Positions 7,411 to 41,763 of a DNA stretch of 64,000 nucleotides are shown here, piece after piece. The notes beneath the pieces were generated by a model. The model was not told the origin of the DNA. It ran no database searches and worked only from the letters and a program-made list of their open reading frames with translations. How positions within the stretch are numbered: position 1 is the stretch's first letter; the number at the start of each line of letters is the position of its first letter. Source of the DNA: a virus. The position numbers were made by a program, and so were the translations under genes. Location of the stretch: the IMG/VR virus record IMGVR_UViG_3300046777_001673, positions 7,570-71,569 of that record; one strand, 5' to 3'.

Positions 7411-10400
7411 TTATTTAGTACCCTTTAATTCGTCAAGTTCTGCACGAAGTTCGGAGATTTCGCCTTTGAGTTCTTTAATGGATTCGATGAGGACTGCAAC
7501 GATGTTTCCATAAGCAACCGACTTCATTCCATCCTCATTAGTGTGTACAACATCTGGAAGAATTTTTTCTACTTCTTGTGCAATCACACCAATTTGATGT
7601 TTCTCAATGTCAGTACGATCATATTCAACACCACGAAGTTGAGTAACTTTATCTAGAGCATTTTCAATAGTTTTGATGTTAGTTTTGAGTCTTTCATCAG
7701 AACTTGCGGTAATTTCACCAGAAGCACCAACATTTCCAGTGTTGTCTATGGTGAAAATTGCTGTGTCTGAACTTCCTCTAAATTCATAACCATTAGCTGG
7801 AGATCCAAAAATAGTTTTACCAGCGTTGGTAAAGTACAATCTATTTGCAGGTTCATCACTTTGTTGCCATACATTGGTGGCACCTCTAAGGAATCCCGTA
7901 CTATTTCTTCCATCTAATAAATCTGCGTTTAAGTTAGTACAGAGTGTTGTAGATACAACAGTAATTGGAGCTGTTCCAGTAGGAATTGCAGATCTGAATA
8001 GAGCAGCAGTAACAACACCGACAGGATTTCCAGTTGCACCATCACCACAATGAATGAGAGTAAGTTTATCGGATTGACCAAAGTTTGTGATAATACCAGC
8101 ATTAGCAAAAATACCTTGGCCAGAAGAACTTCCACTTAACCACAAACTTGCACCAACTTGTGCATTTAGATATTTGAGAGTTCCACCAGTAGCACCAGAA
8201 GCATTTCCACTTAAAGTTGTAATAATACCACTGTTGATATAACCAGTTGGAGCACTCATGTAATTGGTAATTACTGAGTTGGTTGTAAATCCAGTGTTTA
8301 CATAAGCTGTCGGGGCACCAAACCAACCATCAACTGTAGCACCCTGATAACCATTAGAGGGAACAATAAGAGTGGTTACAATTCCAGTGTTTACATATGC
8401 ACTTGTAATACCAGCGTTTGTACTTCTAAAGTTAGTAATAATACCAGTGTTAATTGTAGCAAGAGGAGTTGCAAGGGCAGTATTAGCTCTGACTCCTGTG
8501 ATAAATGCATCAGTTCCATTAATTGTAGTAATTGTGCAAGCAGTACCAGTTAATGATGTAATGATACCAACATTAAGCATGATTTGGCCCACTGTTTCAC
8601 CGATACCGGCATTTCCAAGGCCGCCGATGTACCTGGTACGAATTGCGGTAATAATACCTGAAGTGATATAAGCCTCTGTTGATACTGAAAGTCTTCCAGC
8701 ATTCAAATTGTTTATGATGGAATTATTTGATGTAAGTTGATTGTTGGTTAAAGTACCATTGACTAAAGTTCCAGCAATACTTGAAACACCAACAAAAGTA
8801 GAGTTAAATGATTCTGCAAAGGTTACTTTTGCAGTTGTAAATGTTGCAGCAGTTCCAGTAACTTCTAAGTTTTGGAATTGTGCAATCGTATTAGCATTTA
8901 CAGTTTGAATTGTATAGTTTGTTCCAACTCCAGCAAAGACAATGGTTTTGTTTAGATCAATAACATCAAATGCAGCATTACCAATCGCCTGAGCACCAGC
9001 GAAAGTAACAGCACCACCAACATAAAGGTTCTTAACTTTTACTGTTCCATTAACTTCAACTGCATCACTGAAGTTGTAAATACCAGAACTAGATCCTACA
9101 GCAATTTGATCTAATTTTAAGTAATCTCTATCTTTGTCTTGAGAAATCATTCCCCAACGACGCCAATCTCCATCAGCATAAACATGTCCAATATATCCAC
9201 CTGGATCTGGAGTTGCCAGGAATGTGATATCACCAACTCTCTTAGCCTCGGTAGGTGTTGCAATACCAACTGTAAGAAGTTTTGGTTGAGATGCAACACC
9301 CTTAATGTAAAGATCTCTAGTTTCTAATCCAGCATCAGCAGTGCTAGTTAGTTTTTGTGTGAAGTTTACTGGACCATAGAATTGTGATGTTTGGTTATTG
9401 TTTTCACCACCTTCAACGGTAAGTCTTTCTTTTACAACTAGGTCATCAAATACACCACTGTTTCTTCTTTCAACCGTGTCTCCTTCGTCTCCGAAGAATG
9501 TAACAACAGGAGCATCAATAGTTTCTTCTTCACCGGTAGAACCATTAATTTTGGTTGCGCCAGAGTAAAATTCACCTCTGTCGTTCATACCAGTATAAAC
9601 AACAGTACCACCATCTTGTTCTCTTGCTTGAGAAACTAAAACTTCTTCATTACTCAAGATACGATCTTGTTTTACAGGTAGACCAGTTGAATAGTTACCA
9701 GGACCGTAACCAAGATATTCAAATGTATGACCAGATGCACGAAGAATAGAAGGTCTACGAATCTCCATTGGGAGAATACGAATTTTTCTGACTACCGAAC
9801 CAGAATCACTTGCAGAAGCAGTAGTTGAGAACTGACCTCTTAGGACATTGAATACATTTGATGCAGCATCACTTACAAGACGAAGTATTTCTGAATTTAT
9901 AACGATATAATCTCCTTTCTTAAATCCAAACGCACTTGTCAACACAATAGATGTATCGGTTGATGTAATTGGATTTGCTAGAGTAGTGGTAACTCCGACA
10001 TATATGAAGTTTCCTCTACCACCAAGATTTTCTTCACCTAAACCTAAAGCTCTTCCATTTGCAGAAATTGCAGATTTCTGGATAGTTACTCCAGTCAAAT
10101 TCCAGGTTTGTGTGATAGTTGTAATACCAGTAAAGAATGAGAAAGATGTAATTCCTAGAGTTTCATTTACGATAAATTTCTTAGAGAAGAATGTGTTACC
10201 AATTCCTACAAGTTTGAATGAATTTCCTGAAAGTAATCCATGACCTTCGGTGGAAATTACAGTTGCAATACCAGCAGCCTTGTTATGAGTAATTGTGGTT
10301 ACCCCAACACCTTTTGCGGCCAAATATGCAATCGGCAATCTATCATCGTTTCTAGTTCTAAAGAGGGTTGATGGTACACCTTCTTCAATCAACACAGAAA

Positions 10401-40906: not shown

Positions 40907-40932
40907 AAAAAAAGGGAGGTGTAAACCTCCCC
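40907..40932 (-). terminator. Intrinsic terminator closing the riboswitch operon
   Basis: GGGAGGT-TTAC-ACCTCCC-TTTTTTT on the minus strand. Confidence 0.85.
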
Positions 40933-40939
40933 GATGATT

Positions 40940-41038
40940 TCATTTATACAACCATTGAATATAAAAAGACAATAACATCGTAGTTAAAGCAATCGCAGCA
41001 GTAGATGAGACTATAACTTGTGCGATGGAAGACATCAT
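40940..41038 (-). CDS. 32-aa single-TM microprotein
   Basis: MMSSIAQVIVSSTAAIALTTMLLSFYIQWLYK; ATGA overlap; GGAG RBS. Confidence 0.6.
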   Translation of the reverse strand: MMSSIAQVIVSSTAAIALTTMLLSFYIQWLYK

Positions 41039-41133
41039 TTTGCTCCTACTAGTTGTGCTAGTTGTGCTTGGTGACGACGCTCTTCTTTTTGTTTTTGGTC
41101 TTTAATAAGTTGTAGGAAGTTAAGTTTCTTCAT
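41035..41133 (-). CDS. 32-aa basic helical microprotein
   Basis: MKKLNFLQLIKDQKQKEERRHQAQLAQLVGAK; ATGA overlap; GGAGG RBS. Confidence 0.65.
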   Translation of the reverse strand: MKKLNFLQLIKDQKQKEERRHQAQLAQLVGAK

Positions 41134-41294
41134 TTGCCCCCCTCCCAATTCCAGTTGTTGCATGGACGATATGCGGTTCCACGATATACATTCTGTGGAT
41201 GGGATGGAGCATGAGTTTCAGAATACCAGTGTTGATATTCTTGCTTAGGGGCGTCAGTATTATACTTGCACCCTCTATAGGTTGCTTGTGACAT
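41130..41294 (-). CDS. DUF4278-like YRG-motif peptide (54 aa)
   Basis: MSQATYRGCKY...VYRGTAY with two YRG motifs; AAGGAG RBS; this family is typically found downstream of glutamine riboswitches. Confidence 0.8.
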   Translation of the reverse strand: MSQATYRGCKYNTDAPKQEYQHWYSETHAPSHPQNVYRGTAYRPCNNWNWEGGK

Positions 41295-41326
41295 TAGGTT
41301 TTCTCCTTAGTTTTTGAGGTTAAAGA

Positions 41327-41498
41327 GCGTTCCTTCAGTCGGCTTTTGCGTCTATGAAATTACAAGTCCTTGGAGATCCCTCTTTGAAAATCTGAATGAG
41401 TTCAGATCTTGCAGGCTCATCCATTTTCAATTTTACATTATTAATGAGTTTTTGAGCCTCAATACAAGTCCAGAGAATTGTTTCCATAGATGAACGAT
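41327..41498 (-). ncRNA. Glutamine riboswitch (glnA class) aptamer 2, P2 loop expanded by an ORF
   Basis: 5' AUCGUUCA-UCUAUGGAA ... UUUCAUAGA-CGCAAAAGCCGACUGAAGGAACGC 3'; P1 CGUUC/GAACG; P2 9 bp. Confidence 0.8.
41335..41487 (-). CDS. 50-aa protein nested in riboswitch aptamer 2
   Basis: METILWTCIEAQKLINNVKLKMDEPARSELIQIFKEGSPRTCNFIDAKAD; ATG lies in the P2 5' strand and the stop lies in the aptamer 3' core. Confidence 0.65.
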   Translation of the reverse strand: METILWTCIEAQKLINNVKLKMDEPARSELIQIFKEGSPRTCNFIDAKAD

Positions 41499-41755
41499 CC
41501 GTTCCGAGTCGGCTTACTTCCGTCCTATTAAATTGTTTAGCACTTAAGTCTCACAACATCCTTTCGGAGTTCTGAAAGCAGTCGGTCTTCTCTTCTTTGG
41601 TCTACTACATCGTCGTTTTTAACGATGTCCATTAGTTCCCACGCTGCGTCGCAACTTATCGTAACTTGATTAGTTTGGGCAAGTTGTGGCGTAGAAATAG
41701 AAAGAAGTGGAACCCATGCTAAAAGCAAAAGTGCTTTAGTCATAGGATGAACGAT
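41499..41755 (-). ncRNA. Glutamine riboswitch (glnA class) aptamer 1, P2 loop expanded by an ORF
   Basis: 5' AUCGUUCA-UCCUAU ... AUAGGA-CGGAAGUAAGCCGACUCGGAACGG 3'; P1 CGUUC/GAACG; P2 6 bp. Confidence 0.75.
41537..41743 (-). CDS. 68-aa exported protein nested in riboswitch aptamer 1
   Basis: Signal-peptide-like N-terminus; C-x-x-A-x-x-L...SEL...C pattern shared with 41335..41487. Confidence 0.7.
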   Translation of the reverse strand: MTKALLLLAWVPLLSISTPQLAQTNQVTISCDAAWELMDIVKNDDVVDQRREDRLLSELRKDVVRLKC

Positions 41756-41763
41756 AGGAGATT

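Follow-up and report, generated by a model that had tools for sequence, protein, structure and literature searches.

Among described regulatory RNAs, glutamine-I riboswitches (the glnA motif, RF01739) come closest to the element considered here, a pair of adjoining riboswitch-like cores that lie between positions 41753 and 41328 on the minus strand of a virus genome, each holding a small open reading frame (ORF) in the loop of its P2 helix. The DNA analysed, called the window below, is a stretch of 64 kb (64,000 nucleotides, nt) and forms part of a 71.6-kb virus record in IMG/VR (IMGVR_UViG_3300046777_001673, positions 7,570 to 71,569). Glutamine-I has been studied best in the gifB (IF17) leader of Synechocystis (PMC6212724; PMC2864571). 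The locus shares with it the P1 pairing CGUUC/GAACG, the junction ACG[G/C]AAGUA and the GGAACG end; a covarying P2, a tandem arrangement, a DUF4278/IF17-like gene downstream and a sequence after P1 able to pair with the ribosome-binding site (RBS) are further likenesses. It differs from glutamine-I in that P2 encloses 140-225 nt with a gene whose AUG is in the stem, in that one of the ORFs ends inside the 3' core, and in that each core is without one half of the AGUA/GAA element and no full-length Rfam match is obtained. The reading that we prefer, with a probability of about 0.7, is that the locus is the leader of a small nitrogen-linked cyanophage operon, formed by a type-I-like glutamine riboswitch with two cores, both of which enclose a real small gene in their P2.

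Other known systems resemble parts of this arrangement. The glutamine-II riboswitch (Downstream-peptide motif, RF01704) has a similar CGUUCA...GGAACG pairing and a CGCA junction, but it is compact (~55 nt), holds GGAACG in the loop of a 3' hairpin that is pseudoknotted to CGUUC, and ends before its ORF begins, with no gene inside. In the group I introns of T4-type phages, homing-endonuclease ORFs are looped out of peripheral stems; here too a gene sits in the stem loop of a structured RNA, folding and translation are in conflict, and the setting is a T4-like phage, although the intron is a ribozyme with a mobility gene, whereas the window contains metabolite-sensor cores with an ORF start codon in a sensor helix. 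Upstream ORFs were reportedly found by Kipkorir et al. in 2024 in atypical B12 riboswitches of Mycobacterium tuberculosis, where they are said to lie in the expression platform and not to form conserved protein families; these likewise couple the translation of a short ORF to a riboswitch, but not from inside an aptamer loop. Our searches of paper texts brought up no account of a gene within the aptamer of a riboswitch. A census from 2017 gives only two glutamine aptamers in cyanophage genomes (PMC5473149).

An earlier note on this DNA, made from the letters alone, had placed two cores with their P1 and P2 strands and two ORFs of 68 and 50 amino acids (aa) on the minus strand, and all of these are present where it put them. 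The 5' half of core 1 (41753-41742) consists of the P1 5' strand CGUUC (41753-41749), an A (41748) and the P2 5' strand UCCUAU (41747-41742), inside which lies the AUG of ORF1 (41743-41741). This 68-aa nested gene (type A, 41743-41537), which has a hydrophobic N-terminus and two invariant cysteines, is followed by the 3' half of the core (41528-41500), made up of the P2 3' strand AUAGGA (41528-41523) and a conserved 23-nt core with AGUA (41522-41500), at the end of which stands the P1 3' strand GGAACG (41505-41500). A linker of 3 nt, GAU (41499-41497), separates the two cores; it may also serve as the loop of a junction hairpin, GAACG-GAU-CGUUC. Core 2 opens (41496-41482) with CGUUCA (41496-41491) and the P2 5' strand UCUAUGGAA (41490-41482), which contains the AUG of ORF2 (41487-41485); the 50-aa nested gene (type C, 41487-41335, again with two invariant cysteines) runs into the 3' half (41359-41328), where the P2 3' strand UUUCAUAGA (41359-41351) leads into a conserved 23-nt core that includes GAA (41350-41328) and finishes on the P1 3' strand GGAACG (41333-41328). 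As the earlier note had read it, ORF2 stops on the UGA of this 3' core (41337-41335), so that its last five codons (DAKAD) and its stop are encoded by the riboswitch core, and both start codons fall within P2 5' strands, an arrangement that also holds across all long relatives examined.

The two P2 helices of the window, each placed directly behind CGUUCA and directly ahead of CG[G/C]A, have 6 (core 1) and 9 (core 2) contiguous pairs, enclosing 225 or 140 nt, and the P1 strands CGUUCA and GGAACG are exact at the expected places in both cores. As a possible P3 there is only a 2-bp AG/CU stem around CCGA, which is how Rfam aligns the relatives. Within the minus strand of the window, CGTTCAT occurs exactly twice, at 41753 and 41496, and a regular expression for the 3' core finds exactly two matches in the 64 kb, both at the locus, against 0.23 per shuffled window.

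That a standard covariance search would pass over the element had been anticipated, and it does: RF01739 has no match in the window at its gathering score, and none at an expectation value (E) of 10 or less either on the region or on the whole 71.6-kb record. RF01704 likewise gave nothing in the region at E<=10, and matches of the region to snoR97, StyR-143 and PreQ1 (E 3-10) were taken as chance. We judged RF01739 identity by comparison with natural uninterrupted relatives and by scans in the truncated mode of Infernal. In that mode the 3' half of core 2, given alone, aligns to model positions 14-53 of RF01739 (13.1 bits, E 0.55), and that of core 1 to positions 17-53 (12.7 bits, E 0.62).

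The relatives carry more of the argument. A blastn search of the element against phage genomes returned 29 records, and in them the cores at this locus are free of inserts or contain one or both of them. The same two cores are uninterrupted in S-PM2 and S-CREM1, where their P2 hairpins are short and the scores against RF01739 are 33.3 and 33.5 bits; in the S-CREM1 record the element is labelled a glnA riboswitch (PMC9964418). DSL-LC03 keeps its first core intact (34.2 bits) and has its second interrupted by a homologue of ORF2, a layout shared by DSL-LC02, S-SRM01 and P-RSM6, while P-SSM3, P-SSM4 and P-RSM3 have both cores split as in the window. The letters of the core 1 5' half are identical in uninterrupted relatives scoring 33-34 bits for RF01739, and the 3' cores occur in the same few variants in long (split) and short forms. 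These comparisons show the window's conserved cores to be those of predicted uninterrupted phage glutamine riboswitches. It is because relatives carry the same cores uninterrupted at the same locus that we assign the split form to this class; the earlier note, too, had proposed glutamine-riboswitch cores split by genes in their P2 loops.

A pattern written for the junction between two cores fetched at least 120 IMG/VR loci which, with nine named phage loci and the window, gave 130 tandem junctions; all counts of tandem loci given below hold among the matches listed. Lengths of P2 fall into two classes, 10-28 or 190-225 nt in first cores and 4-22 or 138-199 nt in second cores, with no core between 28 and 138 nt. 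All combinations of the two classes occur (first/second: short/long 54, short/short 37, long/long 20 and long/short 13, with 6 cut by contig ends), and at least one gene-bearing core invisible to Rfam is found at 90 of the 130 loci. In each of the 110 long inserts an ATG stands 3-6 nt behind CGTTCA, and the insert is spanned by an ORF of 49-69 aa. The ORF stops on the core's own U(G/A)A in 72 of 76 long second cores. Of the 34 long first cores, 14 have the stop on the core UAA and 7 have it in the P2 3' strand; in the other 13, which are of the window's type, it comes 9-17 nt ahead of the core. The same architecture exists outside tandems: at L354/L355 (491-726) a lone glutamine-I aptamer of canonical form, complete with AGUA, a true P3 hairpin and GAA, holds a 63-codon type-B gene in its P2 loop, with an NtcA-like box upstream and a YRG gene downstream, and Rfam does not detect this aptamer.

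The earlier view that P2 is normally short should be qualified: several filamentous cyanobacteria (L222, L215, L218, L270, L317) have glutamine-I P2 arms of 44-85 nt that are structured and without ORFs, so the length of P2 is flexible in cellular members too. Cellular loci collected with a loose 3'-core pattern (at least 120 loci) comprise, among the matches listed, 43 true short aptamers, 78 chance matches and 2 that appeared long, one of these being an 85-nt structured arm and the other chance; a nested ORF was found in none of the cellular aptamers in this set. In contigs from RNA libraries (runs X16 and X18), a close relative of the window has ORF2 replaced by a 20-nt hairpin loop at the P2 boundaries (window 41351-41490), which indicates that gene-bearing and gene-free versions coexist in the same waters.

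If the long inserts sit within a helix, their two flanks should pair even though they are far apart. Pairs were counted by a script from the base of the helix, using distinct strand pairs only; a MAFFT alignment of the 72 long second cores misregistered the P2 5' strand. At P2 positions 2-6, 91.6% of pairs form in the long second cores against 65.4% with shuffled partners, and 88.3% against 79.8% in the long first cores, neither observed value being reached in any of 2000 shuffles. The identity of the pairs varies in the long second cores, with CG 31, UA 16 and UG 8 at position 3, CG 24, AU 15, UA 9 and UG 6 at position 4, and AU 27, UA 19, UG 6 and CG 2 at position 5. Since the type of pair shifts together with the overlapped codon (I-D, W-D, K-D or E-D before the core), coding constraint alone is an insufficient explanation. 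Taken together, the pair counts show that the predicted long-range P2 pairing is kept by compensatory change.

Folding predictions point in the same direction. In native long aptamers the P2 pair probabilities are 0.67 and 0.81, compared with 0.27 and 0.22 when the interiors are shuffled, and in 25 of 31 long first cores no fold has a lower energy than the one with P1 and P2, which carries a penalty of 0.8 kcal/mol in the window. The second P2 of the window has a predicted pair probability of 0.998; for the first P2, values in other type-A relatives range from 0.02 to 0.99. The 478-nt RNA of the window as a whole folds better than its shuffles (z -2.96). In its minimum-energy fold, UCUCCU at 41756-41761 pairs with AGGAGA at 41302-41307, the downstream Shine-Dalgarno, over a distance of 450 nt; by eye this pairing is not conserved in S-PM2 or DSL-LC03, and UCUCCU may precede the true start.

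What lies inside these loops has the substitution pattern of protein-coding DNA. Across interior codons, the ratio of nonsynonymous to synonymous rates (dN/dS) is 0.30 for type A (ORF1), 0.21 for type B, 0.26 for type C (ORF2) and 0.51 for other second-core ORFs. The nonsynonymous rate is the lower in 77 of 77 usable type-A pairs (78 pairs in total), 85 of 85 type-B, 224 of 225 type-C and 909 of 969 other second-core pairs, or 1295 of 1356 usable pairs overall; substitutions are most frequent at third codon positions, then at first and then at second, and in all three protein alignments a pair of cysteines, some 35 residues from each other, never varies. These patterns show that the enclosed ORFs evolve as proteins and are genes. 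The pattern search thus bears out what had been expected of relatives, in that P2 covaries and the ORFs are under purifying selection.

The association between gene and RNA is also seen when one begins with the protein. Type A has homologues in 245 clusters, and in a protein-first search 75 of 80 type-A loci have CGUUCA before the AUG together with a 3' core after the stop, while 78 of 80 type-B loci have both aptamer halves; the exceptions in these two types are contig ends, one script miss, one internal stop and one AUG at an offset of 8. The upstream CGUUCA alone is found at 79 of 79 evaluable type-A loci (for 1 of 80 the script found no start) and at 79 of 80 type-B loci. The tail of type-B proteins reads GRK in first-type cores and DAKAD in second-type cores, and the core variants change amino acids (K to Q, A to V); this switch of tail, with the same core variants in split and unsplit forms, implies that the RNA dictates the protein's tail.

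In the case of the proteins themselves, Pfam and PHROG gave no family for the nested products, phrog_504 appearing only at E 0.0047. Profiles of types B and C match each other in hhalign at E 1.6e-5, with cysteine aligned to cysteine, and type A resembles both only weakly by profile (E 0.003-0.004); a single superfamily is accordingly likely, on these alignments, for types B and C only. An AlphaFold2 model of type C is a two-helix hairpin with a predicted local distance difference test score (pLDDT) of 82.7, and the model of ORF1 is poor (pLDDT 58.9). Foldseek returned nothing for the nested protein in the PDB at E<=0.001; PipX stood among its best rows (E 3.7-5.5, probability 0.18) and was taken as chance. 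For the nested proteins the ESM Atlas gave only unnamed clusters, below 0.9, and no P0203 relatives were found in viral contigs.

The type-B profile matches 88 clusters among 1.84 billion representatives, and some of these homologues have long N-termini that resemble, by eye, secretion signal peptides, placed before a W-x-M-[ST]-C...K-V-x3-C domain; judging from these N-termini, the domain with the two cysteines (2-Cys) is probably exported. Homologues with such N-termini occur in phages as free-standing genes (L412-L436, e.g. L417 501-823), where none of 23 loci has CGUUCA before the AUG. At 8 of these 23 loci a compact riboswitch begins no more than 60 nt beyond the gene, identified as glutamine-II (RF01704) in the four of four tested, at 50-50.8 bits. 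With both nested and free-standing layouts, the 2-Cys family is tied to glutamine riboswitches in two ways, inside them or beside them.

The surroundings of the element speak of nitrogen. In the sequence upstream, a putative NtcA site, GTA-N8-TAC (41815-41802, minus strand), precedes what reads as a sigma-70-type promoter on the same strand (-35 TTGACT 41793-41788, an 18-nt spacer, and -10 TATACT 41769-41764), with a predicted transcription start near 41757. Such a box occurs within 100 nt upstream of the first CGUUCA at 100 of 127 loci, as against 4 of 127 control windows, mostly at a distance of 58-62 nt from CGUUCA, though at only 19-20 nt in 16 loci, which suggests that nitrogen may control the operon at the level of transcription as well; a TAnnnT lies 6-22 nt before CGUUCA at 120 of 127 loci. 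Metatranscriptome contigs cover 41285-41761, some of them ending at 41761 and 41753. The summed depth in run X16 falls from 755 to 12 across 41760, and in one run it amounts to hundreds to thousands inside the operon and to ~6 upstream of the promoter. Gaps in the cover, for instance 41146-41268 in three runs, and differences in depth were given no weight as evidence.

Downstream, the expression platform (41327-41295, minus strand) contains CUCUUUA (41327-41321), which can pair with UAAGGAG (41309-41303), the latter including the Shine-Dalgarno of the next gene. A fold of 41334-41288 gives this hairpin -7.4 kcal/mol and 79% of the ensemble, and the same letters recur in S-CREM1, DSL-LC03 and S-SRM01. 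According to PMC6212724, the gifB (IF17) leader is a glutamine-ON translational switch for which melting of an RBS-blocking helix is proposed, and the candidate CUCUUUA/UAAGGAG helix of the window resembles that proposed helix. The gene that follows (41294-41130, minus strand) encodes a 54-aa DUF4278-like (IF17-like) protein with YRG motifs. It matches Pfam DUF4278 (PF14105) at E 0.0031 and 18.3 bits, below the cut-off of 25.3, and phrog_5049 at 5e-10; all nine randomly drawn homologues match DUF4278 at E<=0.0025, five of them above the cut-off, and 91 of 93 distinct downstream ORFs have Y[RK]G near the N-terminus. DUF4278 marks IF17, the glutamine-synthetase inactivating factor (PMC6212724). 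Beyond this gene, small ORFs lie within 40907-41163 on the minus strand, one of 42 aa (41163-41035) with a weak match to phrog_545 (E 0.001) and one of 32 aa (41038-40940). The window has T4-like cyanophage content, with thyX and two tRNAs, and its closest DNA matches are freshwater metagenomes.

Three explanations of the split cores would do without a functional gene-bearing sensor at each position, and all of them appear improbable, though to different degrees. The least far-fetched is that cassettes have killed the sensors and that the halves survive as start and stop contexts, as coding sequence for tails and as homology arms between co-infecting phages. Such a history would sit well with the presence of all four short/long combinations among close relatives, with the hairpin loop that takes the place of ORF2 in the relative's RNA contig, with the recurrence of a given short P2 module, and of a given protein family, in either core position, and with ORF tails encoded by cores. 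We nonetheless think it improbable, given that P2 strands 138-225 nt apart keep compensatory pairing while the proteins have diverged to 21-68% identity, that split and unsplit forms share their core variants, which alter amino acids instead of drifting synonymously, that native interiors favour P2 over shuffled ones, and that CGUUCA before the AUG is kept in nearly all of the type-A and type-B loci counted above. That the inserts are non-coding extended P2 arms with accidental ORFs is barely credible and was rejected on ORF openness and codon-level selection: structured cyanobacterial arms without ORFs do exist and the window's RNA folds better than shuffles, but each of the 110 long inserts forms an open frame whose ATG has a fixed place, the nonsynonymous rate is the lower in nearly every pair with the codon-position order and invariant cysteines to match, and free-standing homologues with signal-peptide-like N-termini occur. 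A permuted local aptamer is very unlikely too. In it, the 3' half of core 1 and the 5' half of core 2 would form a 48-nt unit with P1 closed by the GAU loop and P2 left open, the outer halves being leftovers; this stretch is the best conserved in blastn against phage genomes (query 473-520) and can form the GAACG-GAU-CGUUC hairpin. It was rejected on the poor pairing of adjacent halves, whose in-register P2 averages 2.1-3.0 pairs against 4.8-7.8 for cognate halves and reaches at least five pairs in 6 of 115 distinct loci and in 0 of 17 long/long ones, and the outer halves are conserved as well as the inner. Counted as contiguous pairs, adjacent halves give 3.0, against 5.7 and 7.8 for cognate ones.

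A more serious competitor, to which we would grant slightly less than an even chance, accepts the genes and the P2 arms and concerns the way in which the two cores are joined. The earlier note saw two abutting glnA-class aptamers. The two cores do adjoin, but neither is canonical, and the side-by-side topology is in doubt from the AGUA/GAA split and from RNAalifold. The element CGGAAGUA opposite GAAG, which is the AGUA/GAA pair of the Rfam consensus, is absent within either window core alone and complete only when both are combined. This division is general: AGUA is confined to non-final and GAA to final cores in 155 of 159 distinct non-edge arrays (L010-L209, L330-L409), namely 153 with AGUA only and then GAA only, plus two triples with GAA only in the last core. 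The cores could on this evidence be interlocked as one composite, cooperative sensor, in which the first CGUUC pairs with the last GAACG, AGUA meets GAA, and two gene-bearing P2 arms project. RNAalifold, run on 32 distinct uninterrupted tandems, gives just such a nested topology, with a junction hairpin and an extra inter-core helix, one inter-core pair being GC in 25 and GU in 7; the junction hairpin GAACG-GAU-CGUUC appears in that consensus and in the minimum-energy fold of the 478-nt RNA, and for the first S-PM2 core the scores for glutamine-II and glutamine-I are nearly equal (24.6 bits for RF01704, whose cut-off is 33, against 24.4 for RF01739). Against interlocking, every pair that would distinguish it is invariant or changed on one side only, so that nothing favours it over side-by-side P1 helices; one single array of each core type stands away from contig ends; at L354 a nested gene sits in a canonical aptamer that stands alone; and the energies of RNAalifold ignore tertiary contacts. 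As far as the alignments go, the odds between side-by-side and interlocked topologies are roughly even, and gene-bearing P2 arms are a supported feature under either.

The preferred reading of a glutamine riboswitch with genes in its P2 loops has itself to be set against a number of observations that weigh on the other side. Its assignment to RF01739 draws on modest scores: that family is the sole one of 4227 reported for each 3' half, weakly, at only ~13 bits and E ~0.6, and the uninterrupted phage relatives, at 33.3-34.2 bits, stay just below the Rfam gathering score of 35. Core 1 has AGUA and is without GAA before GGAACG, core 2 has GAA and is without AGUA, and neither is therefore canonical. 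The letters of P1 are invariant across the 130 loci, so they lend no covariation support and leave the partner ambiguous, and the junction hairpin competes with both P1 helices. The survey itself used a junction pattern that set the linker at 2-5 nt and fixes part of both cores. Covariation of the first-core P2 is modest (88% against 80%), and kinship among the sequences means that the shuffle counts overstate independence. The first P2 of the window is predicted with a probability of only 0.02, and where ORF1 starts, a strong local hairpin (41746-41713, minus strand) pairs the AUG region with codons 9-11; this hairpin beats the first P2 by 0.8 kcal/mol and also hides the ORF1 AUG. The platform hairpin is matched by 16 of 200 shuffles and so is not better than chance by energy. 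Finally, the metatranscriptome runs consist of contigs that may contain DNA, and they show presence in RNA libraries only and cannot prove a start.

If the gene-bearing glutamine riboswitch is nonetheless taken as the working model, it follows from its geometry that sensor folding and nested translation compete. By analogy with gifB we infer that the element would bind glutamine, and in which direction it would regulate. During transcription, a nested AUG would be free until the distal P2 strand is made, allowing ribosomes to load. A ribosome on a nested gene would melt P2, and one terminating on ORF2 would also cover the 3' core and the P1 3' strand, so that the sensor could not fold on an mRNA being translated there. 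Where the nested genes are empty of ribosomes, P1 and P2 would form and the nested start codons would be hidden; glutamine binding, as in gifB, would then free the Shine-Dalgarno of the DUF4278 gene from the CUCUUUA/UAAGGAG hairpin. The predicted outcome would be that the nested 2-Cys proteins are made early or when glutamine is low and the IF17-like protein when glutamine is high, with a single transcript, probably also NtcA-dependent, serving both outputs. More tentatively still, and with the chances leaning against it, one might see here a gene-wrapping riboswitch that takes glutamine and ribosome occupancy as its inputs, gives either exported 2-Cys proteins or the IF17-like regulator as mutually exclusive outputs, and uses its cores as docking arms for the swapping of cassettes.

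The usual picture of a riboswitch aptamer is that of a compact domain without coding function, placed ahead of the genes under its control, whereas here conserved genes lie inside the aptamer, and the nested start codons, with one stop codon, form part of the sensor. Surveys that use covariance models undercount phage riboswitches. Because isolated phages exist with both layouts, uninterrupted in S-PM2 and doubly split in P-SSM4, the question can be tested directly. Should the gene-wrapping reading be true, the riboswitch would be a regulated cassette site. If the split form senses glutamine, sensing and translation would physically shut each other out on a given RNA and, if this is true, two sets of proteins would be under reciprocal control without a protein regulator, which would bear on how cyanophages read the nitrogen status of their hosts.

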